A stretch of 64,000 nucleotides of DNA from Candidatus Multivoradales bacterium (GTDB taxonomy: Bacteria > Acidobacteriota > Thermoanaerobaculia > Multivoradales > J023). Positions within the stretch are counted from its first letter, which is position 1, and every line of letters starts with the position of its first letter. This document shows positions 5,470 through 54,294 of this stretch, one piece after another. Location: the NCBI GenBank assembly GCA_965248925.1, contig CBDFLE010000005.1, positions 768,001 to 832,000 of the forward strand, in the 5' to 3' direction. The translations under genes were made by a program, and so were the position numbers. The notes beneath the pieces are model-generated. The model ran no database searches. It was not told the DNA's origin and was given only the letters and a program-made list of their open reading frames with translations.

Positions 5470-8097
5470 ATGGCAAAAGCAGCGCGGCTAACGCCGATGA
5501 TGCGCCAGTACCTGGAGGTCAAGGCGCAGTACCCGGATGCGATCCTGCTCTACCGGATGGGGGATTTCTTCGAAATTTTTTCCGAGGATGCGCGCCGTGC
5601 TGCGCCGATTCTCGAAGTGGCTCTGACCGCCCGTCAGAAAGGAACCGCGAACGAAGTGGCGATGTGCGGGGTGCCTCACCATGCCATCGAGGGCTACCTT
5701 GGCAAATTGCTGCGGGCCGGACTCAAGGTGGCGATCTGCGATCAAGTCGAGGATCCGAAACAGGCCAAAGGACTGGTCAAGCGGGAAGTCACCCGGGTGG
5801 TGACGCCGGGCACCGTCAGTTCCCCCGAACTGCTCGAAGGCAAAGAAGACAATCTGCTCGCCAGCCTGATCTGGCAGCCAGGTGGTCCAGGCACTGAGCA
5901 GGGCGGTGCTGGCGCGTTTTTGGATGTCTCAACAGGTACCTTCTTCGTCCGCCGCTGGCCGACGACGGATGCATGTCTCGAAGATCTAGGGGTGCTGCGA
6001 CCGCGGGAGGTCCTGTTTCGCCAAGTCGCCTTGCCGGCCAAGCTCAGCAGCTGGATAGAGCGCGAAGTGGTTTGCTGGACCGCACTCGAAGAGGATCAGC
6101 TCCTCGACTCGAAGCAGGCCGGCGAGCTGTTGCAACGGCAGCTCGAAACCTCAACCCTGCGCGGCTTCGGCCTGCATCCGGCAGAGGCAGCTGTGCTGGC
6201 CGCCGCCACCGCTCTGAGCTACGCCCAGCAGACCCAACACAGTGAACTGAGTCACATCCGTAGTCTGCAAGTGCGCGACCGAGATGCCGGCATGGTGCTC
6301 GATCCCACCACCTTGAGCAATCTGGAGGTTTTTCGCAGCCTGCGCGAAGGGGGGCGGTCCGGCACCCTGCTGAGTGTTCTCGACCAAAGTGTCTCCCCTC
6401 CTGGCGGCCGCCTGCTGCGCGATTGGCTGCGGCGGCCACTCAAGGACCCGGCACAGATCGAGCTGCGCCTCGATGCGGTCGGCGAATTGATTGCCGACGG
6501 CCGGCGGCGTGAAGGGCTGCGCGAGGAGCTGGCTCGGGTCGGCGATTTGGAACGCCTGCTGGGGCGCGCGGTGCTCGCTTCCCTGACTCCGCGCGAAGCT
6601 GGGGCGTTGCGCGATGGCCTACTGCGGGCACCAGCATTGCTGGCGCGGGTAGCGGCAGCCACCGCCGAGCTGCTGGCCACCGCGGCACGGGTCGATCCTC
6701 TGGCTGATCTGGCGGCCGAACTCGACCGTCTAGTGGTGGAATCGCCGCCAGCGCATCTGCGCGACGGTGGGGTCATCGCCGCGGGAGTTGACGAAGAACT
6801 CGACCGCTGCCGTTCCCTGGCTCGCGATTCCAAACAGCACATCTTGGCGATGGAGGCGCGTGAGCGTCAAGCCACCGGCATCGGTTCGCTGAAGATCCGC
6901 TACAACAAGGTCTTCGGCTACTATTTGGAGGTCACCAAAGCGAACCAGCATCTAGTGCCCGAGCACTACATCCGCAAGCAAACCCTGGTCAATGCCGAGC
7001 GCTACATCACTCCCGAGGTCAAGGAGCTGGAAGAACAGGTGCTGTCGGCGGAAGAAAGGCAATTGGCGCTGGAGGAGCGCTATTTCGAGCAAGTTCGCCA
7101 GCGGGTGGTGGTGGCGGGCCAGGGGCTGCGGGACCTGGCTGCTGCTTTTGCTCTGCTAGACACCCTCGCCGCCTTCGCCGAGGTCGGTGCCCGGCGGGGC
7201 TACTGCCGGCCCAAGATAAGACCCGCGGGAGGTTTGCTGCAGATCCGCGAGGGTCGTCATCCGGTGGTCGAGCGCAGCACTTCAGAGCCCTTCGTTCCCA
7301 ACGATGCGGAGCTCGGCGAAGACTGCCAGATCGTCGTCCTTACCGGGCCCAACATGGGCGGAAAATCGACTTATTTGCGACAAGTGGCATTAATAGTGCT
7401 GATGGCCCAGGCGGGCAGTTTCGTGCCCGCCGAGGCGGCGGAAATTTCCACCATCGACCGTCTTTTCACCCGCGTCGGTGCCGCCGATGATCTGGCCCGA
7501 GGTGAATCGACTTTCATGGTCGAGATGATCGAGACCGCCAACATCCTGCACCACGCCACTGGCGAGAGCCTGGTGATCCTCGACGAAGTAGGGCGCGGCA
7601 CTGCCACTTTCGATGGCCTGTCCTTGGCCTGGGCGATTGTCGAACACCTGCACCAGCACCGCCGCCCCAAAACCCTCTTTGCCACCCACTACCACGAACT
7701 CACCGAGCTGGCGTCGACGCTGCCAGGGGTGGTCAATCGCACCATGGCGGTGCGCGAATGGGAAGAGCGCATCATCTTCCTGCGCCGAGTGGTGCCGGGC
7801 AGCGCGGATAAGAGCTATGGCATTCACGTCGCCCGTCTGGCCGGCCTACCGGACTCGGTGATCACCCGCGCCGCCGAAGTGCTGGCCAACCTAGAAGCTC
7901 AGGAGTACGACCTGGTCGGCCAACCTCGGCTAGCCCAGGGGGACAACGCGCCGGTAAGCAACGCCGACCCGCAACTGTCGTTGTTCACCCCAGTCCAGGA
8001 GGTGATTGCCGAACTGCTGCGCGAGGTCGACCTCAATCAACTGACCCCGCTGGCCGCCCTCAACTTTCTCCATGGGCTGAAAGATCGATTGGGCTAG
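5470..8097 (+). CDS. mutS: DNA mismatch repair protein MutS
   Basis: TPMMRQY, RMGDFFE, TGPNMGGKSTYLRQ, STFMVEM, DEVGRGT, FATHYHEL. Confidence 0.99.
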   Translation: MAKAARLTPMMRQYLEVKAQYPDAILLYRMGDFFEIFSEDARRAAPILEVALTARQKGTANEVAMCGVPHHAIEGYLGKLLRAGLKVAICDQVEDPKQAKGLVKREVTRVVTPGTVSSPELLEGKEDNLLASLIWQPGGPGTEQGGAGAFLDVSTGTFFVRRWPTTDACLEDLGVLRPREVLFRQVALPAKLSSWIEREVVCWTALEEDQLLDSKQAGELLQRQLETSTLRGFGLHPAEAAVLAAATALSYAQQTQHSELSHIRSLQVRDRDAGMVLDPTTLSNLEVFRSLREGGRSGTLLSVLDQSVSPPGGRLLRDWLRRPLKDPAQIELRLDAVGELIADGRRREGLREELARVGDLERLLGRAVLASLTPREAGALRDGLLRAPALLARVAAATAELLATAARVDPLADLAAELDRLVVESPPAHLRDGGVIAAGVDEELDRCRSLARDSKQHILAMEARERQATGIGSLKIRYNKVFGYYLEVTKANQHLVPEHYIRKQTLVNAERYITPEVKELEEQVLSAEERQLALEERYFEQVRQRVVVAGQGLRDLAAAFALLDTLAAFAEVGARRGYCRPKIRPAGGLLQIREGRHPVVERSTSEPFVPNDAELGEDCQIVVLTGPNMGGKSTYLRQVALIVLMAQAGSFVPAEAAEISTIDRLFTRVGAADDLARGESTFMVEMIETANILHHATGESLVILDEVGRGTATFDGLSLAWAIVEHLHQHRRPKTLFATHYHELTELASTLPGVVNRTMAVREWEERIIFLRRVVPGSADKSYGIHVARLAGLPDSVITRAAEVLANLEAQEYDLVGQPRLAQGDNAPVSNADPQLSLFTPVQEVIAELLREVDLNQLTPLAALNFLHGLKDRLG

Positions 8098-23087: not shown

Positions 23088-26000
23088 TCAGTCGAGACTG
23101 CTGATCCAGCCTTCCAGTGTCCCCTGGGTGCAACCAAAGAAAAACTGACCGTTGCCCGCACCGGTCGCGGTCAAGATCTGCTCGCAGGAGCAGCCACCGG
23201 TGTCACCGAGGGTGAAGATCAGGTCGTCGTGCGGCCCCGGCGGGGTGTCGAAAACACCATCGCCGTCCACTAACGCCCAATGGTTCTTCTTGAGCGTACG
23301 GGTAGGCACCGCCTCTGGGATCTCCGTGCCGGGACAGCGGTCATCGCAGGCGTCGGCCAGGCCATCGCCGTCGGCGTCGGCTTGATCGGGATTGGGTACC
23401 GCCGGGCAGTTGTCCAGATCGTCACCGATGCCGTCGCCATCGCCGTCACCAGCGAGGAACAGCACCAGGCCGTCGTGGTCCGAGGCCCGCAGCGGGGTGG
23501 TCGGGTCGTCGAGCAGAATCCGCGCCGCGTCGGCATTGCCGCGTCCATATTCCAGGCCGCGCACCAGGGCATCGAGATGGCTCGAGGTCAGGGCGTGGTC
23601 GAGGGTTTGGGAACTGCCTCTGAAGTTGAACGAGTAGCGTTCAGCGGCTGGCAAAGCCAGAGTCTCGATCAGTAGGTTCGGATCCACCAGATCGGCAGCC
23701 GAGAGCAGGTTGTCGGCCGGGGTGAAGTTGCCGGCCATTTGCCCCACCACATCGACAAAGCCATCGGTGAACTCGAAGGCGTTGTAGTCACCGGTCACCA
23801 CCAGGTTGACGTCCGGATCGGTGGTTTGCAGGTCCTGGACGATCTGGGCGATCGACTGGGCTTGCTCAAGCCGCTTCTGCCGCACTCGTGGACCACTTCC
23901 TGGATCAGCATCGATCCCGTTCAACGACCGGTTGTGGACCACCAAGACGCTGATCGGAGTTGGCAGGGTACTGCCCAGGTAGCTGCCTTCGAACAGCAGC
24001 GGCGGACGATCATGCAGCAGACTGCCGTCAAAAGTCAGTAGCTCGGCGGCAGCTAGCTGGGTTATAGCGTCGACCTGGATCACATCTTCGCGCACCAAGA
24101 AGCCGACATCGATGCCGCCCTGGTCGTTACCTTCGGTCAGGAATGCGGTGTAAAGCACGGCCGCATCGTCGGCGAAGATCCGGGTCGCCAGTTCGCTCAG
24201 CGTGGCGATGTTCTCCACTTCCTCAACCGCCAGAATGTCGGGCGCCAAGAGCACCTCTCGGATGTAGAGGGAGAACTTGGTCAGCCGGGTCTGGAACTCG
24301 GCGGTCGAGACCAGAGTGCCGCCGTGGTCCATCGGATCGACGATGTCATTGAACAGGCGGAACAGGTTCAATGAACCCACCGTGAACTCACCCGCCGCCG
24401 TCGCCCGCACCGCCACCGGTAACGTCGCCGGGGTGATGCTGAGGGAAGCGGGGAAGAGTTCATAGCCACCGAACTCGAAACCGATCACACCGACGGCATC
24501 AAAGCTCGAACCGGCGGCAATGATCTGGTTGGGCAGTCCAAGGCGGTCGGGATCGAGCTCGAAGACCTCGGGATTGCCATCCCACACCGGCAGCCCAACG
24601 ATCCCCGGGAATTCGATACCCGGCTCGCGGAAGCTGCGGTTGGGACCGGCAACGATGTGTACCTCGGCGATCGGATCCGAGCCGAAACTCTGGTTCGAGC
24701 CCACCACGGTACCGCCGACGATCTCCACCAACATGCCTTCTAAGCGCTCCAACTCGATTGGCGACACCGGTTGCAGCGGCGAAGGAGTGTTGGCATCGAG
24801 GGTCACGGCGGCCGGTATGGCGCCACCAGTGGCGGTCACCATCACGGTGAGCGGCGCCGTCAGCTCGGTGAAGCCAAAGAACTCCTGCACCACACCGGTG
24901 ATATCGACCATGTCACCCACCGCCACCGTCGGTGGTGTGGTGGTGAAGACGAAGATGCCGTCCGAGGTGTCGCTATCGCCATCGCTGCGCACCGTCGGTG
25001 TTTGGATGAAAAAGCCATCCGGTGCCAGCACGGTGACCACGTTGGCCTCGGTCGCCACTTCAGAACCGTCAAAAGGTGAGGTCAGGCCGTTGCCTTGGAG
25101 CTCGAAAATCTCCAGCACCACCAGGGCGCAAGTATTCTCCGCCGCCGGGGTCGGCGCCGCTTGCTGATAGCCAGCGGTGTTGAAGGCACCGCCAGCCCCA
25201 TTCGGGCAGCGCTGGTTGGAGTGGCCATCCTTATTGCCACCGCCGGCTTCGTTGACCTGCGGCTCGCCTGGGTTGAGCAACACCAGCAGACCGGCGTCGT
25301 CGCCGTCGTCGGTGTCGTAGACCAAGGCATCGACCAGATCGGCGATGCTCACCGCCGTGCCATTGGGGAAGTCGGCCGCGTCGCCAGCGTAAATGGCGAT
25401 CGCATCGGCACCGTTCTGCAGGCCGTTGGAGCTGAAGACCACATCCGGCGCCGGCACCAGGCCAGCATTGCCGAGCAGCAGATAACCATTGGCATCGGTG
25501 GTCAGGCCGTCGAGATCGAAGGCGTTGTACACCGTGTCGCTAGAGCCGTTGTAGAGCACCACTACCAGGCCATCGAGAGCGGTGCTGCCGCTGCCGCCGT
25601 CGAATAGTTCGATGAACTCCAGAGTGTCGGTGCCGGCGGTATCCGCATCCGCTTCATTGATCCACAGATCGGGTAGGGGGCAGAAGTTATCCGCCGCCGG
25701 GGTGGGTGGATTCTGCAGATAGCCGGCGGTGTTGCGCCCGCCACCGACGCCGTTGGGGCAGCGCTGGTTGGAGTGGGCATCCTTATCCCCGGCTCCACCT
25801 TCGTTGACTTGCGGCTGACCGGCGTTGAGCAGCACCAGGAGACCGGCGTCATCGCCGTCGTTGGTGTCGTAGACCAAGGCATCGATCAGGTTGGCGGTGG
25901 TTACCGCCGTGCCATTGGCGAAGTCGGCCGCGTCGGCAGCATAGATCGCCACCGCGTCGGCGCCGTTCTGCAAGCCGTTGGAGCCGAAAACGATATCCGG

Positions 26001-27632
26001 CGCCGGGCTCACCCCGACATTGCCGAGCAAGAAATAGCCATTGACATCGGTGGTGAACCCGTCGAGGTCGAAAGCGTTGTAAACCGTATCGCTGGAACCG
26101 TTGTAGAGCACCACCACCAGGCCGTCGAGAACGGTGCCGCCGCTGCCGCCGTCGAACAACTCGATGAACTCGAGCACGTCGGTGCCGGCGGTGTCGGCGT
26201 CAGCTTCGTTGATCAGCACGTCGCCGACCATCGGTACCGGGCAGTTGTTGTCTGCCGCCGGGCTGGGGGTGTCCTGGAGGTAGCCGGAAGTGTTGAGGCC
26301 ACCGCCGGCGCCGTTCGGGCAGCGCTGATTGGAGTGGCCGTCCTTGTCGCCTGCGCCACCCTCGTTGACCTGTGGCTCGCCGGCATTGAGCAGCGCCAGC
26401 AGGCCCGCGTCATCGCCATCGTTGGTGTCATAGACCAGCGCGTCCAGCAGGTTGGCGGTAGCTAGCGCCGTACCGTTAGGGAAGTCGGCCGCGTCGCCAA
26501 CATAGAGGGCGATCGCGTCGGCACCATTCTGTAGGCCGTTAGAGGGGAAGATGATGGCGGGAGTCGGCGAGACCGCAGCGTTGCCGAGCAGGAAGTAGCC
26601 ACTGGCATCGGTAGTGAAGCCATCGAGATCGAACGCATTGTAGACCGTGTCGCTGGAGCCGTTGTAAAGCACCACCACGAGACCGTCGAGGGCGGTGGTA
26701 CCACTGCCACCGTCGAACAACTCTATAAACTCGAGCACGTCGGTGCTGGCGGTGTCGGCGTCAGCCTCATTGATCAGGATTGGCGGTACGGCCGGCGCCA
26801 GCGCTTCACAGACACCGGGGTTAGGAGCGGTGAAAGCGCTGTCCCAGGTGTTCTGGATTTGCTCCGAAGTCTCGTCGTCGCCGGTAGCACCATTGGCACC
26901 GCTGGTCTCGTTGCCGGCTTCCAGGGTCAGCCGCTTGGTGGAGGTACCAAAGCCCGGATCGGCACTCTGCTGCGGCATGGTGAAGGCATCGGTGCCATAG
27001 GCGGTGGCGCTAGTGTCGGCATCGGGTCCATCGACCGCCACACTCGTCTTGTCGCCGATATCGTTAGCGGCCGATGGCGTGCCGATATTCAGCATGTCGA
27101 CGTCCTGCACCAGATCGCTGGCCCCATCCCAAGTGAACAGCACCGCGTTCTCGCCACTGTTGGTCAGTCCGGCACTGGCACCAAGGTCGGTGGGGATCAT
27201 GTCCGGCGTGCCCGCGTCGGTACCCGAGATTTCGAAATCGGCAGCAGTGCCGAAGGCGGCCAGGAAACCAGCACCGTCGAAAGCGATCACCGCCACCTGT
27301 CCCGGCGCCAGGCTAGAACCGGCGGGGAAGCGGACGATGAAGTCCGAGCTACCGATCGACGGCGTCGGCCCGGTACCACTAGCAGCCGGCAAAAGGGCAT
27401 AGCTAGCGTCGTCAGCAAGGTAGAAATCATCCAACCCCACCGCCGCCGCGGTCGGATTGACGATTTCCAAGAACTCACTGGCGGTCGGCGTCACCACTGC
27501 CTCACAGAGCAGCAAATGGTCGTCAGTAGCCCCGGCTGGCACCACCAGCATCCCGGTAGCCCACAGAATTAGCGCGGCTGTCCGCAGGAGCAGCCACCGC
27601 CTTGGGGAGGTAGATTGGAAGGATCGGAACAT
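23088..27632 (-). CDS. Large secreted ExeM/NucH-like nuclease: lamin-tail-like domains, OB-fold, EEP domain, TSP3-like repeat
   Basis: AGGAG RBS and signal peptide; IFELQG..SPFDG and GFFIQ (OB); EEP motifs NLFRL, EEVEN, GDYN, LDH, SDHD; DGDGIGDDLDNCP..NPDQADADGDG. Confidence 0.85.
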   Translation of the reverse strand: MFRSFQSTSPRRWLLLRTAALILWATGMLVVPAGATDDHLLLCEAVVTPTASEFLEIVNPTAAAVGLDDFYLADDASYALLPAASGTGPTPSIGSSDFIVRFPAGSSLAPGQVAVIAFDGAGFLAAFGTAADFEISGTDAGTPDMIPTDLGASAGLTNSGENAVLFTWDGASDLVQDVDMLNIGTPSAANDIGDKTSVAVDGPDADTSATAYGTDAFTMPQQSADPGFGTSTKRLTLEAGNETSGANGATGDDETSEQIQNTWDSAFTAPNPGVCEALAPAVPPILINEADADTASTDVLEFIELFDGGSGTTALDGLVVVLYNGSSDTVYNAFDLDGFTTDASGYFLLGNAAVSPTPAIIFPSNGLQNGADAIALYVGDAADFPNGTALATANLLDALVYDTNDGDDAGLLALLNAGEPQVNEGGAGDKDGHSNQRCPNGAGGGLNTSGYLQDTPSPAADNNCPVPMVGDVLINEADADTAGTDVLEFIELFDGGSGGTVLDGLVVVLYNGSSDTVYNAFDLDGFTTDVNGYFLLGNVGVSPAPDIVFGSNGLQNGADAVAIYAADAADFANGTAVTTANLIDALVYDTNDGDDAGLLVLLNAGQPQVNEGGAGDKDAHSNQRCPNGVGGGRNTAGYLQNPPTPAADNFCPLPDLWINEADADTAGTDTLEFIELFDGGSGSTALDGLVVVLYNGSSDTVYNAFDLDGLTTDANGYLLLGNAGLVPAPDVVFSSNGLQNGADAIAIYAGDAADFPNGTAVSIADLVDALVYDTDDGDDAGLLVLLNPGEPQVNEAGGGNKDGHSNQRCPNGAGGAFNTAGYQQAAPTPAAENTCALVVLEIFELQGNGLTSPFDGSEVATEANVVTVLAPDGFFIQTPTVRSDGDSDTSDGIFVFTTTPPTVAVGDMVDITGVVQEFFGFTELTAPLTVMVTATGGAIPAAVTLDANTPSPLQPVSPIELERLEGMLVEIVGGTVVGSNQSFGSDPIAEVHIVAGPNRSFREPGIEFPGIVGLPVWDGNPEVFELDPDRLGLPNQIIAAGSSFDAVGVIGFEFGGYELFPASLSITPATLPVAVRATAAGEFTVGSLNLFRLFNDIVDPMDHGGTLVSTAEFQTRLTKFSLYIREVLLAPDILAVEEVENIATLSELATRIFADDAAVLYTAFLTEGNDQGGIDVGFLVREDVIQVDAITQLAAAELLTFDGSLLHDRPPLLFEGSYLGSTLPTPISVLVVHNRSLNGIDADPGSGPRVRQKRLEQAQSIAQIVQDLQTTDPDVNLVVTGDYNAFEFTDGFVDVVGQMAGNFTPADNLLSAADLVDPNLLIETLALPAAERYSFNFRGSSQTLDHALTSSHLDALVRGLEYGRGNADAARILLDDPTTPLRASDHDGLVLFLAGDGDGDGIGDDLDNCPAVPNPDQADADGDGLADACDDRCPGTEIPEAVPTRTLKKNHWALVDGDGVFDTPPGPHDDLIFTLGDTGGCSCEQILTATGAGNGQFFFGCTQGTLEGWISSLD
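25128..26780 (-). repeat. Three tandem ~185-aa domain repeats inside the nuclease gene
   Basis: Units start (I/V/L)(L/W)INEADADT at about 26780, 26219 and 25667 and end RCPNG...P(S/T)PAA(D/E)NxC. Confidence 0.92.
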
Positions 27633-47097: not shown

Positions 47098-48016
47098 ATC
47101 TCATGTTCTGACAACGTCGTTGCTCGGCCTGGCTGCCTGCGCAGCCATCTCTTGTGGCGGTGCCAAGCAGCCAGACCCCTTGCCATCACAGACTTTGAGC
47201 AAGGTCGCGCCGCAGATCGAGCCGCCGCCTACCAGCCCTGCCCTACCACCGATCACCGAAGTGCCAGCATCCAGGAGTTCGGAGATCAAGGTCATCGATC
47301 CCGGAGGCAACAGCGAGCGGCCGCTGACCCTCGGCGAGGCCTCCCGTTTGGCGAAAGAGATCAAAGCATCTAGCAAACCGTCGATAATCACCATCGACGA
47401 CGACAATCTGGCAGAGTATGCCGCCGGCGGCCAAGTCACCATCATGGAGTCTGAACCCGCCGCGCCTGCCCTCGAAGAGCTCTCCGCCATCATTGCCCAG
47501 GCCGGACCCGCCGCCGCTGCTGGCAGCAACCCACCGCCTGCAATCGGGCGCCGACCGCGAAGCCCTTTGGCGGTTGGCAGTGGCGAGACGCCGCCCGGCG
47601 ACGACGAAGGCTACTGGCGTGGTCGCGCCCTGGATCTACGCCGCGGCTGGCGCGGCACCGTCGATGAGATCAACCAACTCGAGTTGCAGAGCGCCGCTTT
47701 GCGGCAGCAGTTCTACGCTGAAGACGATCCCTATTTGCGCGACTCGCAAGTCAAACCGGCTTGGGATCGTGCTCTCGATAGACTCGACACTCTGCGCCGC
47801 GAGGCTGGCGTCTACGAGGCGGAGGTCGAGGCCTTTGTCGAGAGCGGCCGACTTGCCGGCGCCGAACAGGGTTGGCTCAACGAAGGCTGGGAGCTAGAGC
47901 CCGATCTTGACGAGCAGAAGCGTTCACCACGAATAGGTGTCGGCCGTTCAGCCGAGCCCGAGGACACCCTGGAAGCCCAAGATCTATCCTCGGTCGAGCC
48001 TGAGAACGGACCATGA
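47084..48016 (+). CDS. Hypothetical lipoprotein
   Basis: Lipobox-like LAACAAISC, Pro-rich linker, C-terminal helical region (EGYWR). Confidence 0.7.
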   Translation: MAKFKSHVLTTSLLGLAACAAISCGGAKQPDPLPSQTLSKVAPQIEPPPTSPALPPITEVPASRSSEIKVIDPGGNSERPLTLGEASRLAKEIKASSKPSIITIDDDNLAEYAAGGQVTIMESEPAAPALEELSAIIAQAGPAAAAGSNPPPAIGRRPRSPLAVGSGETPPGDDEGYWRGRALDLRRGWRGTVDEINQLELQSAALRQQFYAEDDPYLRDSQVKPAWDRALDRLDTLRREAGVYEAEVEAFVESGRLAGAEQGWLNEGWELEPDLDEQKRSPRIGVGRSAEPEDTLEAQDLSSVEPENGP

Positions 48017-49383
48017 CTCCCTCTACTCTGAAGCCCCAACAGCTACCCAAACCGCGGCGGTTCTACGTCGAGACCTGGGGCTGCCAAATGAACGAACTTG
48101 ACAGCCAGCGGATGACCGGCCAGCTGATGGAGCAAGGCATCCTGCCAACCCGCGATCCAGGCGACGCCGACTTGATCTTGCTAAACTCCTGCTCGGTGCG
48201 CGAGAAGGCAGCCCAGAAAGCCTATTCGCGACTGGGCCAATACCGTCTGCTGAAGCGGGACCGGCCTCATCTGCTGATTGGCTTCTGCGGCTGCGTCGCA
48301 CAACAAGAAGGCGACAAGGCCATGGCGCGGGTGCCTGACTTGGACTTTGTTATCGGCCCGGGGCGGGTCGGCGAACTCAAGCAACTACTAGCCCAGCGCC
48401 AACTCGGACGTCGGGTGGTTGCCACTGGGTTTCCCAAAGCCGCCAGCCGCAACTACGCCTTCGACAGTCTCGCCAGGCAGAGTTCCTATAAGGGCATGGT
48501 CACCATCATCGAGGGCTGCAACAAGAAATGTACCTTCTGCATAGTCCCCAGCACCCGTGGACCCGAGCAGTGCCGTTCCTTGCCGGTGATTCTCGACGAA
48601 GTGCGCCATTTGTTGGACTATGGCTTTGCCGAGATCGAACTCCTGGGTCAAACGGTGAACCATTGGCTAGATCCCGAAACCGGCGCCGACTTCGCGGTCC
48701 TGCTCGACCAAGTCGCCGCTCTCGATAGGGTAGAGCGGCTGCGATTCGTCACCTCCTACCCACGTGACTTCAGCCAGCAGATGGTCGACCAAATCGGCCG
48801 GCACGAGAACATCTGCCCCTATCTCCATCTGCCGGTCCAATCGGGATCAGATCGAGTGCTCAAGATGATGGGGCGAGGCTATGAAGTCGCTTTATTTGAT
48901 GATCTTGTCGCCCGGCTACGCCAAGCGAGATCAGGTCTAGCTATATCTTCCGATTTCATCGTCGGCTTTCCGGGAGAAGCCGAGGAAGATTTCCAGCAGA
49001 CTCTGGACCTGATCGAGCGCACTCGCTTCGCTTCGCTCTATGCCTTCAAGTACTCGCCAAGGCCCGGTACCGCCGCACCGAGAATGAAGCAACCGCCCGT
49101 GCCTGACGAGATCGCCAGTCGCCGCTTGCAAGAGCTTCTGGCGCTGCAAGGGGGCATTCAACGAGAGATCAACGAGAGTCTGGTCGGTCAAATCTACGAC
49201 GTGCTGGTCACCGGTTGGGGAAAGAAGCCCGGAAGTCAGAGTGGCCGCACCCCTTGCCACCGGGTGGTCCACTTTGAACCCACCGCTGGCGCCTCGATCC
49301 CGCTCGGCAGTTTGACGACAGTGAAGATTGAGCGGGCTTTGCCCCACAGCCTAATCGCTTCCCTCACCGATTCACCGACTTGA
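48013..49383 (+). CDS. miaB: tRNA methylthiotransferase MiaB
   Basis: TWGCQMNELDS, CSVREKA, GCVAQ, CNKKCTFC, IVGFPGE, YSPRPGT. Confidence 0.97.
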   Translation: MTPSTLKPQQLPKPRRFYVETWGCQMNELDSQRMTGQLMEQGILPTRDPGDADLILLNSCSVREKAAQKAYSRLGQYRLLKRDRPHLLIGFCGCVAQQEGDKAMARVPDLDFVIGPGRVGELKQLLAQRQLGRRVVATGFPKAASRNYAFDSLARQSSYKGMVTIIEGCNKKCTFCIVPSTRGPEQCRSLPVILDEVRHLLDYGFAEIELLGQTVNHWLDPETGADFAVLLDQVAALDRVERLRFVTSYPRDFSQQMVDQIGRHENICPYLHLPVQSGSDRVLKMMGRGYEVALFDDLVARLRQARSGLAISSDFIVGFPGEAEEDFQQTLDLIERTRFASLYAFKYSPRPGTAAPRMKQPPVPDEIASRRLQELLALQGGIQREINESLVGQIYDVLVTGWGKKPGSQSGRTPCHRVVHFEPTAGASIPLGSLTTVKIERALPHSLIASLTDSPT

Positions 49384-49417
49384 CCTACCACCTCGACAGG
49401 CGGACAATAGGACCACT

Positions 49418-49924
49418 ATGAGTGAGTCACCAGAGGATCGCGTCCGCGTCGAAGTCAAAGGTTTGATGTTGGATCCAAATTCGAACGTACCGATAGTTAT
49501 TCTGCGGGAGGCTGGCGGTTCAGAGATCCTGCCGATCTGGATCGGCGTCTTTGAGGCCAACGCTATCGCCTTGTCGCTTGAGAAAATCGAGCCTACCAGG
49601 CCGATGACCCATGATCTGATTGCAAACTTGGTCGAGCAGATGGAGATCGACGTCTGTCGGGTGGTGATCTGCGATCTGCAAGAGAGCACCTTCTTCGCTC
49701 GCATCGATCTGCAGAGAGGCAGTCGGCCCGAAGTGTCGATCGATTCACGACCCAGCGATGCGATTGCCTTGGCCCTCCGAGTCGACGCTCTGATCTTTGT
49801 CACCCGAGGGGTCCTCGATCAGGCACGGGACGTTGACCTCAGCGATCAGCTCGGCGAGCGCAATAAGATCCGTAAGTGGCTCGAAGAGGTCGATCCCGAA
49901 GATCTTGGGAAGTACACCATGTAG
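49418..49924 (+). CDS. Bifunctional nuclease family protein (DUF151)
   Basis: LPIWIG..EA.AI, RPMTHDL, IDSRPSDAIALAL. Confidence 0.93.
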   Translation: MSESPEDRVRVEVKGLMLDPNSNVPIVILREAGGSEILPIWIGVFEANAIALSLEKIEPTRPMTHDLIANLVEQMEIDVCRVVICDLQESTFFARIDLQRGSRPEVSIDSRPSDAIALALRVDALIFVTRGVLDQARDVDLSDQLGERNKIRKWLEEVDPEDLGKYTM

Positions 49925-50017: not shown

Positions 50018-50035
50018 ATGTCGGCGCGCCGACAT
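50018..50035. promoter_or_regulatory. Perfect 18-bp palindrome upstream of parA (candidate non-canonical parS or operator)
   Basis: ATGTCGGCG|CGCCGACAT, intergenic, no loop. Confidence 0.6.
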
Positions 50036-50094
50036 CGGCCAATCCGAGGCGCCGGCCGCGCTTTCTTAGACCATCGTCCCCAGCATCGTCTCCC

Positions 50095-50124
50095 TTGACC
50101 GATGGGTCGCACAGCTCATATGCT
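50095..50124 (+). promoter_or_regulatory. Putative parAB promoter
   Basis: TTGACC-18 nt-TATGCT, 10 nt before the ATG at 50135. Confidence 0.55.
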
Positions 50125-50134
50125 GAGTTCTCCT

Positions 50135-50893
50135 ATGATCATTGCCATCACCAATCAAAAAGGCGGGGTGGGGAAGACCACCACCGCAATCAATCTCTCC
50201 GCCGCATTGGCGACCAAGGGTCTCAAGACTCTGCTGATTGACCTTGATCCCCAGGCCAACAGCTCGATGTCATTCGTCGATGTGCATTCTTTGGAGCGGG
50301 CGATCTACGATGTACTGACCGAGGATGAGGTCCATTTGGAAGATGTCGCGGTCGCAGCGGAGAAAGTTCCCAACCTATTCGTCGCCCCCTCAAGCATCAC
50401 CTTGGCGAAGATAGAGTCGAAGTTGCTCGGCGAACTCGACAGTCACTTTCGCCTCAAGGACGAGGTCGATCGGATCCACGATGACTACGACTTCATCATC
50501 ATTGACACGCCCCCGACCCTCGGCATCATCACCGTCAATGCGCTGGTCGCCTCGACCCATGTGCTGATTCCGATTCAGTCGAGCTATTTCGCCCTCGAGG
50601 GAACCGATGACTTGATCGAGACCATCGACAAGATCAAAGTGCGAGCCAATCCCAATCTGCAGATCCTCGGCGCGGTCATCACCCTCTACGACAAGCGCAC
50701 CATCTTGGCCCGCGATATCCGCCATGAAATCGGCAAAGTGTTCGGCGACAAGCTTTTTGAGACTTCGATCTCGAAGAGTGTTCGCCTTGAGGAAAGCCCT
50801 GCTTATCGTGAGTCGATTTTCACCTTCGCGCCTTCCTCCAGTGGCGCCTATGAATATTACAAGCTCTCTGAAGAGGTGCTGAGCCGTGTCTAA
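50135..50893 (+). CDS. parA: ParA/Soj family ATPase
   Basis: Deviant Walker A NQKGGVGKTT, DLDPQAN, IIDTPP, VRLEESP. Confidence 0.95.
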   Translation: MIIAITNQKGGVGKTTTAINLSAALATKGLKTLLIDLDPQANSSMSFVDVHSLERAIYDVLTEDEVHLEDVAVAAEKVPNLFVAPSSITLAKIESKLLGELDSHFRLKDEVDRIHDDYDFIIIDTPPTLGIITVNALVASTHVLIPIQSSYFALEGTDDLIETIDKIKVRANPNLQILGAVITLYDKRTILARDIRHEIGKVFGDKLFETSISKSVRLEESPAYRESIFTFAPSSSGAYEYYKLSEEVLSRV

Positions 50894-51776
50894 TTCCAGC
50901 TTGGACGCCAAGAAACGAGGCCTACCAGAACGGGTGCGAATGCGGCATACGCCGCACTTCGTTGAAGAACTGACCACCCGCAGCGAGCAGCCGGTGGGGA
51001 AGATGGTACCTATCGCGCTGGTCGAACCCGACCCCGATCAGCCTCGGTCGACCATGGGAGACCTCAGCGATCTGGTTGGTTCGATCCAAGACAAGGGCAT
51101 TCTCGAACCCATCCTCGTTCGTCCTTTCGGCGACCAGCGGGCTGGCAAGCCGCAGTACCGCATCATTAGCGGCGAGCGGCGTTTCCGCGCCGCGATGGAA
51201 GCCGGTCTGGTTGAAATTCCACTCATTGAGATGGAGGTCAGCGAGCAAGAAGCTCTTGAGATCGCCTTGATCGAGAACCTGCAACGCAAGGATCTAACCC
51301 CCTTTGAGGAAGCCGAAGGGTACTCATTCTTGAGTGGGCGGCATGATTACACCCACGAAGAAATCTCCCAAGCGGTGGGCAAGTCCCGCACCGTAGTGAC
51401 CGAGAGCCTGGCTCTGCTACAGATGCCACGCCGTGCCCGTGAGACCGCCCAGGCGCTGGGTATCCAGACCAAGTCTCTGCTACTCGAAGTTCTCAAGGTT
51501 GAAGACGAGGAGCAAATGATCCAGCTCTTGGAGCAGGTAAGTCAACGAGGTTTGAACCGCGACGACCTGCGCCGCCGGCATCGCGGAGCAGCCAAGCCCG
51601 GCACGCCGAAGCCAAGACGTAAGCCCTATGTCTTCAATTTTCGCGCCCCGGACAAAAGCTTCAGTCTGGCACTGAAATTTCGACAGGTGGACGTCTCGAA
51701 AGAAGATCTGATCTCCACGCTCGAGAACATCCTGACCGATCTGAGAACAACCAAAGAAGGTCCTGAAGGCGCCTGA
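50886..51776 (+). CDS. parB: ParB/Spo0J family CTPase with an atypical HTH
   Basis: PDPDQPR, GILEPILVR, GERRFRAA, IENLQRKDL, HTH GKSRTVVTESLALL. Confidence 0.92.
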   Translation: MSNSSLDAKKRGLPERVRMRHTPHFVEELTTRSEQPVGKMVPIALVEPDPDQPRSTMGDLSDLVGSIQDKGILEPILVRPFGDQRAGKPQYRIISGERRFRAAMEAGLVEIPLIEMEVSEQEALEIALIENLQRKDLTPFEEAEGYSFLSGRHDYTHEEISQAVGKSRTVVTESLALLQMPRRARETAQALGIQTKSLLLEVLKVEDEEQMIQLLEQVSQRGLNRDDLRRRHRGAAKPGTPKPRRKPYVFNFRAPDKSFSLALKFRQVDVSKEDLISTLENILTDLRTTKEGPEGA

Positions 51777-51823
51777 ACTGGCGCCGCCGTGTGCCAAGGA
51801 ACGGAGGGGTTCTCGTTAGTCCT

Positions 51824-51851
51824 AGTTGACATAATGTATCTTATCAGACTC
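51824..51851 (-). other. dif site (XerC/XerD chromosome-dimer resolution site)
   Basis: Minus strand GAGTCTGATAA-GATACA-TTATGTCAACT: 11-6-11 layout with inner ATAA/TTAT. The XerD-like arm matches E. coli TTATGTTAAAT at 9/11. Intergenic and AT-rich. Confidence 0.85.
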
Positions 51852-51933
51852 TAGAAATTAGCCCCTTGTGACCACCTTGGCGGGTACGAACTGCTCACCA
51901 GGCCGTCGCTGCCCAGCGTATAATCTCGACCGT

Positions 51934-54294
51934 ATGATCAAACGCCTGGACCGCTACATCTTCGCCGAGATCCTTGGGCCGCTGGCTCTCGGCTTCCTGG
52001 TCTGGACTTTCATCCTCGTTCTGCGCTACCTGTTTGAGATCGCCGAAATGGTGATCCGCCGCGGCGTGGGCTGGTCGACCGCTGGCGAACTGCTGTTGCT
52101 CTACCTGCCGAGCATCGTCGTGCTGACCATACCGATGGCTTTGTTATTTGGCATCTTGGTGGCCGTGGGTCGGCTGTCTGCCGAGAGTGAGCTGATCGCC
52201 ATCCGTGCCTCAGGGGTGAGTCTATTCTCCCTCTATCGACCGATCCTGGTGCTGTCGCTGGTGCTGGCGCTGACCAACGGCTACCTGATGCTCGAGGTGC
52301 TGCCGTACCAGAACCACGCTTTCTCGCGCCTGCGCTACGAGATTCTGCAACAGGGCCTGACCCGGCAGATCGAGCCGCGGGTGTTCTACACCGATTGGGG
52401 CAACCAGGCGTTCTACGTCTTTGAGACCCCTGCCGGTGAAGAGCGCTGGAAGAACACTCTGCTGACCAACAAGATCCCAGCTGGCGACCATCGGTTGGTG
52501 GTCGCCGATTGGGGTGCGGCGCAAACCAACGAGGAAAACGGCAAGGTAACCTTGACCTTCTGGAATGCGGTTGAGCACCAGGTTAATCTCACCGACCCCA
52601 CTGACTACCGCTATTCACGCCACGCAAAGCTCGATCTGGTGATCGACACCGGCCAGGATCGGCAGACTCGCAACTCGGTGAGTCGCAGCATGCGGGAGCT
52701 GGACCTCAAGGGGCTACGCCAGCGAGCACGCGACGCGGGGGCTTCTCCACTGGTCCGCAATCTAGCCCGGGTGGAAATGCATAAGCGCTTCGCCCTGCCC
52801 GCCGCCTGCGTGGTGTTTGCCCTACTCGGTCTGCCCTTGGGCTTTACTACCAACAACCGACATGGCGGGCGATCGTCCGGCCTGGTGTTGTCGATGGGCG
52901 TGATCTTGGTCTATTGGGTTCTGCTGACCATGGGCGAAGAGATGGCCGGCAACGGCCACTTACCGGGTTGGCTGGCGGCCTGGTTTCCCAATTTGGGCTT
53001 GTTCGCTGCTGGCTTGTTCATCATGGCCAGGCGCAACCGCGATCGCGGTTTGGCGTTGATCAATTTTTCCTGGATCAGGCGCTGGCTCGATCGCCGCAGT
53101 GAACGAGCCGAGAACCGCAGACGCAGTCGCCGCCAGGCTTTGATCTCGAAGCGCCAGAGTTCGCGCGCCGATTTGGTGTTGCGCCTGCCCAGCTTCCAGC
53201 TGCGTTTTCCCAACTCGATCGACCGCTACATTTTGAGCAGCTTCTTCCGCACCCTGCTTCTGGTCTGCATGGGTTGCTTGACGGTTTATATCGTTGCCGA
53301 CGTCACCGATAAAGTCGATGACATCTTGAAGAACGCCGTGCCCGGCAACGTGTTGCTGTCGTACTACCGATTCAAGATGTTGGCGATCATCTACGAGATT
53401 GCGCCGATCATTTTGCTGGTGACGACTTTGACCACCTTCGCCATGCTCAGCCGAAACAACGAAGTGACCGCCTGCAAGGCAGCCGGAGTCAGCCTCTATC
53501 GCTTGTCCTTGCCGGTGATCCTCGCCGCCGCCGGACTGGCCGGTCTCTTATGGTTGTTAGGCTCGGAGGTCCTGGCTGCTTCCAACGAACGGATGGCGGT
53601 ATTGCAAGCGCAGATCAAGGGTCGTGAGGCGGTGCCGCAGCATCAGCGGGCCGATCAACGTTGGCGTTTCGCTACCGACCAGAGGCTCTACAACTATCGC
53701 CAGTACGATGCCGGCAAGCAGCTGGTCAAGAATCTCCAAGTCCTGGAGCTGGACGATCGGCGTCACCTGGTGCGGCGCCTAGTGGCGGAAAGCGCGGCCT
53801 ACGCCGGCGATGGCTGGTGGGCGTTGAAGAACGGCTGGACGCGAGAATTCGGTGACCATCAGGTCACTAGCTTTGAGCGCTTCGATGACGTCAAGAAGGC
53901 TCGCCTGCCGGTTGAGCCCGAGTTCTTTCTGGGCGAGTTGCGCAGTCCCGACGAAATGAACTTCAGCGAGTTACGTCAGTATCTGACCGAGCTAGAGGCT
54001 ACCGGACAGCAAGAACCGGTCCTCGAAGTGGAACTCTACGACAAGATCGCCTACCCCACGATCTCACTGGTGATGGCGCTGGTTGCCCTACCCTTCTCCT
54101 TCTTGCTCGGCCGCCGCGGTGCACTCTACGGAATTGGCCTGGCAATCGTCCTCGGCATTGTTTTCCTCGCCTTGATGGCCACCTTCAAAGCGCTGGGCCA
54201 GGCGGCGGTCCTGCCACCGCTAATAGCTGTGTGGAGTCCTAGTCTGATCTTCTCGCTGTTGGCGCTCTATCTCTTCCTCGGCATTCGCTCCTGA
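51934..54294 (+). CDS. Fused LptF-LptG LPS export permease
   Basis: Two tandem YjgP/YjgQ units (LDRYI...GRLSAESELIAIRASGVS and IDRYI...LSRNNEVTACKAAGVS). Confidence 0.93.
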   Translation: MIKRLDRYIFAEILGPLALGFLVWTFILVLRYLFEIAEMVIRRGVGWSTAGELLLLYLPSIVVLTIPMALLFGILVAVGRLSAESELIAIRASGVSLFSLYRPILVLSLVLALTNGYLMLEVLPYQNHAFSRLRYEILQQGLTRQIEPRVFYTDWGNQAFYVFETPAGEERWKNTLLTNKIPAGDHRLVVADWGAAQTNEENGKVTLTFWNAVEHQVNLTDPTDYRYSRHAKLDLVIDTGQDRQTRNSVSRSMRELDLKGLRQRARDAGASPLVRNLARVEMHKRFALPAACVVFALLGLPLGFTTNNRHGGRSSGLVLSMGVILVYWVLLTMGEEMAGNGHLPGWLAAWFPNLGLFAAGLFIMARRNRDRGLALINFSWIRRWLDRRSERAENRRRSRRQALISKRQSSRADLVLRLPSFQLRFPNSIDRYILSSFFRTLLLVCMGCLTVYIVADVTDKVDDILKNAVPGNVLLSYYRFKMLAIIYEIAPIILLVTTLTTFAMLSRNNEVTACKAAGVSLYRLSLPVILAAAGLAGLLWLLGSEVLAASNERMAVLQAQIKGREAVPQHQRADQRWRFATDQRLYNYRQYDAGKQLVKNLQVLELDDRRHLVRRLVAESAAYAGDGWWALKNGWTREFGDHQVTSFERFDDVKKARLPVEPEFFLGELRSPDEMNFSELRQYLTELEATGQQEPVLEVELYDKIAYPTISLVMALVALPFSFLLGRRGALYGIGLAIVLGIVFLALMATFKALGQAAVLPPLIAVWSPSLIFSLLALYLFLGIRS

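Follow-up and report, generated by a model that had tools for sequence, protein, structure and literature searches.

A candidate second ParABS system beside dif at the chromosome terminus of Acidobacteriota

Introduction

As a working rule, ParABS on chromosomes is regarded as a device of the replication origin. The locus described here raises the question of what a parA-parB operon with its own palindrome is doing directly beside dif. A ParABS system of the terminus would overturn this rule. Outside the enterobacteria it is largely open how the terminus is positioned and separated and how dif is delivered to the septum, and a conserved ParABS beside dif would make this question directly testable. 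The locus belongs to the Acidobacteriota, a major soil phylum of whose cell biology very little is known.

Results and Discussion

Gene organization of the locus

The window, i.e. the whole 64-kb stretch of DNA analysed (part of contig C5 of genome G000), carries the system and its neighbours in the following order:

48013..49383, + strand: miaB-like radical-SAM methylthiotransferase gene (Pfam UPF0004, Radical_SAM and TRAM), context only
49418..49924, + strand: BFN_dom (DUF151) gene directly 5' of the system (Pfam PF02577, E 1e-39)
50018..50035, no strand: parS* palindrome, a perfect 18-bp palindrome ATGTCGGCGCGCCGACAT with the 16-bp core TGTCGGCGCGCCGACA at 50019-50034
50095..50124, + strand: promoter-like site (TTGACC, 18 nt, TATGCT), from a consensus scan only
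50102..50893, + strand: parA, terminus type (Pfam AAA_31, E 3.8e-60, and CbiA)
50886..51776, + strand: parB, terminus type, 296 aa (Pfam ParB_N and HTH_ParB)
51824..51851, - strand: dif-like 28-mer of the 11-6-11 XerC/XerD type, 47 nt past the parB stop
51868..54294, + strand: fused lptF/lptG permease gene, downstream neighbour (Pfam LptF_LptG in two stretches), context only

The original prediction, made from this DNA alone, had described an intact parA-parB operon among core genes (miaB, DUF151, lptFG), with a palindrome about 100 bp upstream of parA and a dif site 47 bp after the parB stop. All of this was borne out by the coordinates and Pfam families listed above, the palindrome lying 66 nt from ATG 50102 and 99 nt from ATG 50135. 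The latter is probably the true parA start, giving a protein of 252 aa that matches its relatives. The promoter-like site falls between parS* and this probable start; the consensus scan returned 3 such sites in the region compared to 0.7 expected. The prediction had also called parB divergent, which is correct for its sequence (37% identity to the other ParB of the genome) but not for its orientation, as parB lies on the same strand as parA and overlaps the parA stop by 8 nt. Its implied placement of the DNA in the Acidobacteriota was correct.

In agreement with the prediction, a sequence scan and profile searches detected neither a canonical parS nor a DnaA-family match inside the 64-kb window. 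The DnaA-family matches on contig C5 are all located elsewhere and are weak (23-24 bits, in a repeated 342-aa frame). An interpretation of the palindrome as intrinsic terminator of the upstream gene was rejected, because it is not followed by a T-run and the scan called no terminator-like site at this place.

The 28-mer gave one match in the window (0.00 expected) and is unique in the genome at up to 6 mismatches. Its XerD-type arm, read on the minus strand, is TTATGTCAACT and fits the XerD-arm consensus TTATGTHAANT given in the available text of a preprint (bioRxiv 10.64898/2026.07.20.739713). The 28-mer matches the dif site of Frankia alni (PMC3025954) at 20 of 28 positions. The genome encodes XerD (351.7 bits, cut-off 329.6) and a XerC-like protein, which scored 1.3 bits below the XerC cut-off. 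By its arm, its single copy, its position at the terminus and the recombinases present, the 28-mer can be assigned as a predicted XerCD/dif-type dimer resolution site. Kono et al. 2011 reportedly predicted dif sites for three Acidobacteria.

Two Par systems on one replication map

A second parA-parB pair of the genome is located at C6:2,685,515-2,687,004. Beside it lies the only perfect canonical parS of the genome (TGTTNCACGTGAAACA, C6:2,687,780), and both are 12-14 kb from dnaA (C6:2,699,640). The cumulative GC skew has its minimum, the origin side, at about C6:2.72 Mb and its maximum at about C5 815 kb (5-kb bins). The parAB genes of the window and dif (C5:819,824) lie within about 5 kb of this maximum, i.e. 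at the terminus. For this genome the replication map is the skew pattern of contigs C4-C6; the closed relatives are single-contig genomes, and in 8 of 8 of them the locus is 0.42-0.50 genome lengths away from dnaA. The original prediction had proposed a Par system in addition to the one at the origin, to be checked by searching for the other parAB, oriC and the skew switch. This search placed the origin set on C6 and the window set at the skew maximum on C5. Being located at this maximum, and far from dnaA in the closed relatives, the window system lacks the origin-proximal position of chromosomal ParABS. Terminus-type parA and parB, their own candidate palindromic site and the single dif form an apparently complete second ParABS-type system, which is one of the terminus and not of the origin.

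Terminus-type ParA and ParB

The terminus-type ParA carries the deviant Walker A motif of the Soj/ParA type (KGGVGKT) and shows 41% identity to the origin-linked ParA. Its closest solved structure is Soj of Thermus (1wcv, E 1.5e-51, residues 3-252). ParB comprises an N-terminal KRGLP..RMRH motif, a CTP-switch domain, a helix-turn-helix and a beta-beta-alpha C-terminal domain, and scores 133.6 bits against TIGR00180 (cut-off 58.45). The CTP-switch motifs GERRxRA and ENLQRxDL are invariant in 13 ParB orthologues. In the AlphaFold model of ParB (pLDDT 78.8) the C-terminal domain takes the beta-beta-alpha form, and a Foldseek search with this model retrieved Caulobacter ParB (6t1f, TM 0.84 by target length). 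The domain set of a ParABS ParB (CTP domain, helix-turn-helix, C-terminal dimerisation domain) is accordingly present in sequence and model. In the tree, the terminus-type ParBs form one clade (support 99/98) apart from the origin-type ParBs of the Acidobacteriota, which group with Spo0J of Bacillus. The terminus-type clade appears to be old. A protein atlas search with ParB yielded top clusters that are all acidobacterial; one Elusimicrobiota cluster at rank 17 is a lead only.

In other bacteria, division proteins are positioned by ATPases of the ParA family. Conceivably, a ParB complex at dif labels the mid-cell position together with ParA and controls the divisome or brings it there, which would make it a positive counterpart to MipZ or Noc, with DNA movement being secondary. 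The placement of the system at the last-replicated locus and a weak match of the terminus ParA to Pfam MipZ (E 1.5e-12) would fit such a coupling to the division site. The origin-linked ParA, however, has secondary family matches of the same kind, and the nearest solved relatives are Soj proteins, whereas MipZ (2xj4) follows with E 1.9e-6 only. Membership of ParB in Noc was rejected, too (TIGR04285, 139.2 bits, cut-off 315), and no division gene was linked in the 14 neighbourhoods sampled. We regard this explanation as improbable.

The parS* palindrome

The 16-bp palindrome TGTCGGC-NN-GCCGACA, here called parS*, shares with canonical parS only the outer TGT/ACA; 10 of 16 positions differ and 6 match. 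In Caulobacter ParB, residue R173 contacts G1 of parS, according to the available text of PMC7383237. The equivalent of R173 is kept in the terminus-type ParB, and parS* retains the outer TGT. At the position of N178, a DNA-contacting residue that ParB and Noc otherwise conserve, the terminus-type ParBs invariably have Glu.

Within the window the parS* core was matched once at up to 2 mismatches (0.08 expected from shuffles), and it is the sole copy in the 7.98-Mb genome at up to 1 mismatch. A relaxed 14-mer was no commoner in this genome than its reversed control (3 and 5 matches, respectively), so that parS* is supported by the complete 16-mer together with its placement and conservation. 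Upstream of parA, a perfect palindrome with the parS* core is present in 27 of 30 loci with the same gene order, in 1-3 copies. Across the Acidobacteriota at least one copy of GTCGGC-NN-GCCGAC was detected in 98 of 136 orthologous loci, placed either 5' of parA, just 3' of parB or within parB at one fixed codon position. In most genomes there are just 1-3 parS* sites, all at the locus. Only one copy, adjoining it, is present in each of G037, G031 and G109, and all 7 palindromic copies of G145 are found within 146 kb of it.

The sites inside parB lie where the gene encodes C-R-x-A-D. Among the 41 loci encoding these residues at this place, 34 spell exact parS*, whereas the codon usage of these genes would predict about 3%. 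Of the 7 loci that do not, four encode the residues by different codons and possess a site upstream in its place. The intragenic parS* is maintained by synonymous codon choice. We propose parS* as a candidate loading site of the terminus-type ParB; by its sequence and placement it behaves as a centromere dialect.

Alternatively, the palindrome could be the autoregulatory operator of a parAB-like operon, and the adjacency of dif an inherited accident of gene order. In the window it is located about 60 bp upstream of the promoter-like site, as an operator might be, and the order miaB-BFN-parA-parB is likewise conserved, so that some of the linkage is inherited synteny. An operator would not account for the parS* copies within parB, just 3' of parB and at distances of tens to hundreds of kb in the terminus region. 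Moreover, dif varies in orientation and distance and is still found downstream of parB in at least 17 sampled GTDB families. A solely regulatory palindrome is highly improbable in our judgement.

Conservation across the Acidobacteriota

Among 301 genomes sampled from the phylum, 174 contain an orthologue of the terminus-type ParB (E <= 1e-50), and in the other 127 none was detected at this threshold. In the orthologous loci parA is located directly 5' of parB in 132 of 135 cases. Of 136 loci, 94 have a dif-like site at most 1.5 kb 3' of parB and none has one upstream; parS* and dif occur together in 82. Within the DNA examined per locus, dif was not found in 42 and parS* not in 38 of the 136 loci, including loci labelled Terriglobia, Sulfotelmatobacter and Acidiferrum. 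For the loci with the same gene order as the window, dif sites were scored by a position weight matrix built from named loci (22 of 29) and by a simple pattern (26 of 30, with the locus of the window counted in). Its orientation is flipped in 5 of 26 of these loci, with the place after parB unchanged. All these counts overstate the number of independent events, since some species are shared between the three locus sets and relatives do not represent independent samples.

The closed genomes have exactly one zero-mismatch match to the dif pattern each (8 of 8), which is at most 0.8 kb from parB in 7 of them and 24 kb away in the remaining one (G040). In G189 and G293 the only dif-like matches contain one mismatch and lie about 38 kb from parB. 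The original prediction could be judged by whether the order palindrome-parA-parB-dif is conserved in the phylum; it is kept in most, not all, loci, and roughly opposite dnaA in all eight closed genomes. Among 14 sampled orthologous loci, the miaB-like gene was found upstream in 6, the BFN_dom gene upstream of parA or parB in 7, and lptF/lptG as downstream neighbour in 4, in each case also in locus L082. Five of the 80 named records bear non-acidobacterial names (Heliobacteriaceae, Bifidobacterium, Bifidobacteriaceae, Acidimicrobiia, Dormiibacterota); all five are metagenome bins, and the two-ParB pattern is present in them.

Integration at dif is known, and parAB genes are present on some integrated elements. 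The locus might also be the remnant of a plasmid or of an Xer-exploiting mobile element integrated at dif. The roughly 24 kb between parB and dif in G040, unlike in its sister genomes, could be read in this way. On the other hand, the same core-gene context is found across the phylum, each genome has one dif-like site and no flanking pair, and no integrase or rep gene adjoins the system in the window. A comparison with plasmid homologues, suggested along with the one to origin-linked ParBs when the locus was first noticed, set the terminus-type ParBs apart from both. Among the 12 matches listed of 3585, the best plasmid ParBs are 31-36% identical, and all 3585 are below 60%. Distant plasmid ParBs, a single, old ParB clade and a single dif led us to rule out a plasmid or mobile-element origin, and a remnant is an explanation to which we assign next to no probability.

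Loci without parA

In three loci, namely L048, L082 (labelled Candidatus Multivorans azotirespirans) and L142, parA has been lost while parB is retained beside dif. The N-terminal motif of ParB is absent in exactly these three. In three closed genomes of the genus to which L048 belongs, 5-6 palindromic parS* sites are spread over 0.5-0.8 Mb around the locus; 6 of 6 sites lie within 0.7 Mb in G040 and 5 of 5 within 0.52 Mb in G254, and 5 of 6 are near the locus in G030. The parA-less loci and the scattered parS* sites suggest that the terminus-type ParB may have a core role independent of ParA. These natural variants offer a ready contrast of ParA-dependent and ParA-independent roles.

Such loci would fit a role of ParB at parS* as an organiser of the terminus domain. 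It would mainly structure or insulate the terminus, or load, unload or block SMC-type complexes in a manner similar to MatP/matS, and ParA would be an accessory that can be lost. In line with this, no match to the MatP family (PF06303) was obtained in the genome of the window (96.9% complete), while the E. coli control was matched. Yet parA, which is retained directly upstream in all but the three parA-less loci, is better conserved than ParB (54-82% identity), and this speaks for a step that ParA actively drives in the majority of lineages. The 1-3 sites at the locus in most genomes are also unlike a dispersed set of the matS type. We consider the organiser rather unlikely.

Proposed role of the terminus system

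The observations are probably best explained by a second, terminus-dedicated ParABS, which positions or segregates the dif region by a ParA-driven mechanism. In the form of CTP-dependent clamps, ParB dimers would be loaded at parS* and from there slide across the adjacent few kb. At a distance of no more than about 2 kb, dif would fall inside this sliding zone. Through its N-terminal KRGLP..RMRH peptide, ParB would stimulate the dedicated ParA on the nucleoid, so that the terminus/dif region is handled like a plasmid-type cargo. A single ParB complex would be kept at mid-nucleoid, close to the future septum; replication of the terminus would yield two, which would then be driven away from each other. 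Their separation could present dif to FtsK/XerCD and aid the last step of segregation. Its own parS dialect and its own ParA/ParB pair would insulate the terminus system from the origin-linked ParABS.

The function proposed here, positioning or segregation of the dif region or its coupling to XerCD/FtsK, is inferred. A second parAB with its own candidate docking site beside dif points to a so far undescribed manner in which dividing cells deal with the end of the chromosome. In our search of openly readable main texts, neither a terminus-linked second ParABS nor the parS* sequence was found described.

More tentatively, and with a chance that we would put somewhat short of even, many chromosomes of Acidobacteriota may possess two centromere-like loci. 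One would be the origin ParABS, the other a terminus ParABS whose dif-coating clamps actively position the sister termini, then move them apart and pass dif on to FtsK/XerCD; after loss of ParA it would turn into a dispersed, matS-like mark of the terminus domain. If this is true, the system would be a ParA-driven equivalent of the 'Ter linkage' by MatP and the first partition machine devoted to the chromosome terminus.

Comparison with known systems

Compared to the origin-proximal ParABS of Thermus, Bacillus, Caulobacter and Myxococcus, the terminus system has the same three parts, with parS* as the candidate site, and its proteins are of the same families. The nearest relatives of ParB, which keeps the CTP motifs, are Thermus Spo0J and the ParBs of Caulobacter and Myxococcus; that of ParA is Thermus Soj. 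Both sites are 16-bp palindromes with outer TGT/ACA. B. subtilis spo0J likewise holds a parS site within the parB gene itself. The differences are the location beside dif instead of oriC, the changed site, the Glu in place of N178 and the separate ParB clade. Furthermore, the terminus system coexists with a canonical origin system on the same chromosome. Insulated ParA/ParB/parS sets that coexist in one cell are known from secondary replicons (Vibrio chromosome 2, Burkholderia), where they have private sites near their own origins; here a single chromosome carries both sets, which occupy opposite poles of its replication map.

With MatP/matS of enterobacteria the system would have in common a sequence-specific protein that marks the terminus region, and the spread of parS* around dif in genomes of the ParA-less type adds to this likeness. 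There is no homology, however, and the terminus system has a ParA ATPase, a CTP-switch ParB and mostly 1-3 sites.

In multicellular Neisseriaceae, a dif-adjoining parS bound by the one canonical ParB has been proposed to bring the terminus region to mid-cell; according to the available text of this preprint, the site has ChIP-seq support in Simonsiella muelleri and is predicted in Conchiformibius steedae (bioRxiv 10.64898/2026.07.20.739713). As far as this text goes, one ParB there serves origin- and dif-adjoining sites of canonical-type dialects, whereas the Acidobacteriota have a dedicated second ParA/ParB and a distinct candidate site in many lineages.

Noc is a ParB paralogue which kept the CTP switch and acquired a new 16-bp palindrome by changes in the helix-turn-helix region, as described in the available text of PMC7383237. 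The terminus-type ParB is likewise a paralogue with retained CTP-switch motifs and, as predicted here, a changed 16-bp palindrome. Unlike Noc it has its own ParA, and its sites concentrate at the terminus. NBS, the sites of Noc, are depleted there.

Two practical uses follow from these sequences. ParB/parS* is a candidate orthogonal pair for labelling of DNA loci, and the motif pair of parS* and dif is a simple terminus marker for fragmented acidobacterial assemblies.

Location of the second ParABS system

The four elements which the original prediction had placed within a 1.8-kb stretch of the window, a palindrome, parA, parB and a dif site, are all present there as described:

50018-50035: perfect 18-bp palindrome (parS*, the candidate ParB site), with the 16-bp core TGTCGGCGCGCCGACA at 50019-50034
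50095-50124: promoter-like site, a TTGACC/TATGCT pair picked up by a consensus scan and ending 10 nt before ATG 50135
50102-50893: parA, same strand as parB (Pfam AAA_31/CbiA)
50886-51776: parB, same strand as parA with an 8-nt overlap (Pfam ParB_N and HTH_ParB)
51824-51851: dif-like 28-mer, 47 nt 3' of the parB stop, 11-6-11 layout on the minus strand

Pfam identifies the neighbouring genes as ptsI, miaB, a fused lptF/lptG and a gene with a BFN_dom (DUF151). Judging from relatives and from its Pfam match, parA probably starts at ATG 50135; the position of the promoter-like pair is likewise more in keeping with a leader of very few nucleotides and a ParA of 252 aa than with the 263-aa frame from 50102. 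Within the window the 16-mer was found once at up to 2 mismatches (0.08 expected) and the dif pattern once (0.00 expected). The whole 7.98-Mb genome contained no second copy of the 16-mer at up to 1 mismatch and none of the 28-mer at up to 6 mismatches.

The assembly consists of six contigs, the window being C5:768,001-832,000. Cumulative GC skew drops along C6 until about 2.72 Mb, where it has its minimum, and climbs over the rest of that contig; it climbs along C4, and along C5 it climbs to a maximum at C5:815,000 (5-kb bins) before dropping again. The dif site lies at C5:819,824. Contig C6 carries dnaA (C6:2,699,640), another parA-parB pair (C6:2,685,515-2,687,004) and the only perfect canonical parS of the genome (C6:2,687,780). 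Thus, the organism possesses a textbook origin-linked ParABS, to which the window adds a further system at the terminus, as had been proposed. Provided that the contigs form one circle, the replication arms would measure about 3.6-3.7 and 4.3 Mb by our arithmetic.

The terminus-type locus lies roughly opposite the origin in all 8 closed genomes of relatives. The shorter arc from dnaA to the terminus-type parB, relative to genome size (rounded except for G030), was about 0.42 in G030, 0.46 in G109, 0.47 in G145, G040 and G254, 0.48 in G128 and 0.50 in G274 and G330. Just 5' of the origin-type parA, relatives as well as the window's genome carry a canonical parS, single or paired (comparison loci L154:3752 and 3799; L161:4 and 74; L012:3020), mirroring parS* 5' of the terminus-type parA.

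The dif site and the Xer recombinases

The XerD-type arm of the 28-mer, TTATGTCAACT on the minus strand, agrees with the consensus arm TTATGTHAANT quoted in a preprint (bioRxiv 10.64898/2026.07.20.739713), and by our count 20 of 28 positions are identical to the dif of Frankia alni (PMC3025954). A degenerate pattern built from the conserved positions, TTNACATAANNNNNNTTATNNGAC, occurs at zero mismatches exactly once in each of eight closed acidobacterial genomes (8/8), and its reversed control gave zero matches. In 7/8 this unique site lies at most 0.8 kb from parB. The window's genome encodes XerD (TIGR02225, 351.7 bits, cut-off 329.6) and a XerC-like recombinase scoring 333.9 bits with TIGR02224, below the cut-off of 335.15. 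Since the 28-mer is also unique, lies at the skew switch and shares the genome with Xer genes, we take it to be the chromosome's dif. A loose dif core pattern has only one other match in this genome, at C2:11347 on a 41-kb contig.

The only dif pattern of G040 is located at C1:3,640,937, 24 kb from parB (3,665,099-3,665,917), unlike in its sister genomes G030 and G254, where the distance is about 100 nt; DNA may have been inserted at dif, or the region rearranged locally. In two further genomes (G189, G293) the only dif-like sites carry one mismatch and lie about 38 kb from parB. Two Blastocatellia-labelled loci have a XerD-type recombinase gene about 1.6 kb 3' of the terminus-type parB (L077:6489-7370, 339.6 bits with TIGR02225, cut-off 329.6; L110:6480-7364); the weight matrix detected no dif within their 4-kb flanks.

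Conservation in Acidobacteriota

Same-order genomes encode a ParB orthologue of 56-74% identity. Among the 40 relatives searched, two (G021, G023) showed a weak origin-type match only and one (G019) no ParB match. Phylum-wide, 174 of 301 genomes, including two unpublished ones (G062, G182), contain an orthologue at E <= 1e-50. Where the assembly permits, every same-order genome bearing the orthologue has an origin-type ParB as well (about 35-42% identity). The relatives are labelled Acidobacteriota, with Thermoanaerobaculia bins nearest (62-69% identity), followed by Vicinamibacterales, Blastocatellia, Terriglobia, Acidiferrales and Chloracidobacterium. Five of the 80 named records, all metagenome bins, bear other phylum labels: Heliobacteriaceae (L099), Bifidobacterium (L107), Acidimicrobiia (L123), Bifidobacteriaceae (L124) and Dormiibacterota (L146). 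They encode a terminus-type ParB (44-48% identity) plus an origin-type ParB and are probably mislabelled.

The order palindrome-parA-parB-dif, for which conservation had been the question, is maintained across the phylum, with palindrome and dif linked to parB at most loci but not at all.

Gene order and sites at terminus-type loci. The three locus sets share species and the relatives are related by descent, so that counts are loci, not events.
parA directly 5' of parB, same strand: 132/135 loci
dif-like site <=1 kb 3' of parB: 26/30 (same-order set and the window's own locus)
dif-like site 3' of parB: 22/26 (phylum set)
dif-like site <=1.5 kb 3' of parB: 49/80 (named set, weight matrix)
dif-like site <=1.5 kb 3' of parB: 94/136 (all sets)
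dif-like site 5' of parB: 0/136 (all sets)
parS* (GTCGGC-NN-GCCGAC) present: 98/136 (all sets)
parS* and dif both present: 82/136 (all sets)

In the same-order set dif lies 23-984 nt from parB, and matrix scores in the named set split cleanly (at least 26 for dif sites 3' of parB, at most 16 elsewhere). In 5 of 26 same-order matches dif points the other way with respect to parB, yet its position just 3' of parB is kept. By our tally this adjacency extends to at least 17 GTDB families; at 42/136 loci, those labelled Terriglobia, Sulfotelmatobacter and Acidiferrum among them, the 1.5 kb 3' of parB contain no dif. Upstream of parA, miaB and the BFN_dom gene (window 48013-49924) are kept as neighbours across distant classes (6/14 and 7/14 sampled loci, respectively).

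A putative private parS

In the same-order set, 27 of 30 loci have between one and three copies of a perfect palindrome with GTCGGCGCGCCGAC 5' of parA; at two of the other three, the upstream sequence is shorter than 600 nt. In more distant members of the phylum the centre of parS* is CG rather than GC, or free, and the site lies 5' of parA, between parB and dif, or within parB. It shares 6/16 positions with canonical parS, the outer TGT/ACA only. Judged by its sequence, the palindrome is a putative private parS dialect and a candidate ParB site; that it is a mere operator is less likely.

The intragenic parS* always occupies one codon position of parB (about nt 544), encoding C-R-x-A-D. The exact 14-mer is spelled in 34 of 41 named loci encoding this motif there, a count inflated by shared ancestry, compared to about 3% (0.027) expected from the genes' own codon usage, suggesting that not only the protein but also the DNA sequence is under selection. 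Among the seven exceptions, four use other codons for C-R-x-A-D and carry parS* upstream instead.

Palindromic copies are concentrated around the locus in G145 (7/7 within 146 kb), G040 (6/6 within 0.7 Mb), G254 (5/5 within 0.52 Mb) and G030 (5/6). G037, G031 and G109 have one copy each, adjoining the locus, and G016 and G020 triplets at it. There are contrary cases, however: the sole exact copy of G128 lies 2.4 Mb away, the one copy in G274 is a centre variant within parB, and in the window's genome the relaxed 14-mer has 3 matches versus 5 for the reversed control.

The ParB and ParA proteins

ParB scores above the TIGR00180 cut-off, and all 13 orthologues compared (46-71% identity) have GERRxRA and ENLQRxDL unchanged. 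The AlphaFold model (pLDDT 78.8) comprises a ParB N-domain, a helical region for DNA binding and, at the C-terminus, a beta-beta-alpha domain; Foldseek matched it to CTP-bound Myxococcus ParB, Caulobacter ParB-parS (TM 0.84 by target length) and Noc. An assignment as Noc was rejected, as the protein fails the Noc model.

According to PMC7383237, guanine 1 of parS is touched by R173 of Caulobacter ParB, while the contacts N178 and R204 are conserved in ParB and Noc alike. In alignments, terminus-type ParB retains GKSR, the R173 equivalent, which fits the retained outer TGT of parS*. Its N178 equivalent is invariably Glu, its R204 equivalent Lys/Arg, and the loop at the G201 equivalent is shorter by three residues; these changes are a plausible basis of the new inner half-site.

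ParA is nearest to Thermus Soj (E 1.5e-51) and 41% identical to the origin-linked ParA. In the ParB tree (36 rows, LG+C20, unrooted, with four long-branch outgroups and one origin row with an internal stop), the comparison with origin-linked homologues that had been suggested placed the 21 terminus-type rows in a separate group on a long branch (99/98 support). The 11 origin-type rows form the other group (97/95), which joins Bacillus thuringiensis Spo0J (100/96). The split therefore looks older than the acidobacterial radiation. The best 12 plasmid ParBs of 3585 matching records are 31-36% identical, and all 3585 are below 60%; that the system is a relic of a mobile element is less likely.

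Possible function at the terminus

Beyond the anatomy, terminus location, dif adjacency, private palindrome and conservation documented here, a mechanism can be proposed. ParB would load on parS* as a CTP clamp and coat the neighbouring few kb including dif. Its N-terminus would activate ParA, which would place the complex on the nucleoid like a low-copy plasmid. One complex would move to mid-nucleoid, and after replication of the terminus two would be pushed apart. Dif might thus be kept near the closing septum for FtsK/XerCD, aiding the last step of segregation. Division-site signalling is a less likely role.

In the main alternative, ParB itself would act as a MatP-like organiser or control SMC, a reading favoured by lineages lacking ParA; the window's genome gave no match to a MatP-family protein. 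ParA is absent at three loci: L048 (genome G304), L082 (labelled Candidatus Multivorans azotirespirans) and L142. At L082, parB comes immediately after the BFN_dom gene, and then dif and lptFG as usual. Its ParB lacks the otherwise nearly invariant N-terminal KRGLP..RMRH..FVEEL motif, the presence of which goes with that of ParA, as would be predicted for a peptide that activates ParA. The closed genomes from the genus of G304 (G030, G040, G254) have no parS* at the locus itself, and 5-6 copies are scattered over 0.5-0.8 Mb round it. As parB is kept beside dif without parA, ParB probably has a function outlasting the loss of ParA. ParA-driven positioning and a MatP-like organiser are compatible and not mutually exclusive.

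Searches of the full-text literature outside subscription journals and supplements found neither a terminus-linked second ParABS nor a paper with the parS* sequence. The nearest published item is the 2026 preprint bioRxiv 10.64898/2026.07.20.739713, in which the one canonical ParB of Simonsiella muelleri is reported to bind a parS adjoining dif. As described there, this resembles our system in the dif-adjoining site, but S. muelleri has neither a second ParAB nor a private site. The parts, ParABS and XerCD/dif, are known; what is new is how they are paired, where they lie and the dialect of the site.

Other repeated genes of the genome

A partial tyrosine-recombinase frame occurs in many near-identical copies (C5:923,161-976,105, C6:3,501,552-3,517,791 and C4), seven of them spaced 7.5-12 kb and beginning about 100 kb right of dif. 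A 342-aa frame in about 20 copies has weak DnaA-family/AAA matches and looks like an IS helper ATPase. The 29.5-kb contig C1 shows two ParA matches of identical score (6872-7612 and 25612-26352) and may be a small replicon assembled with overlap.
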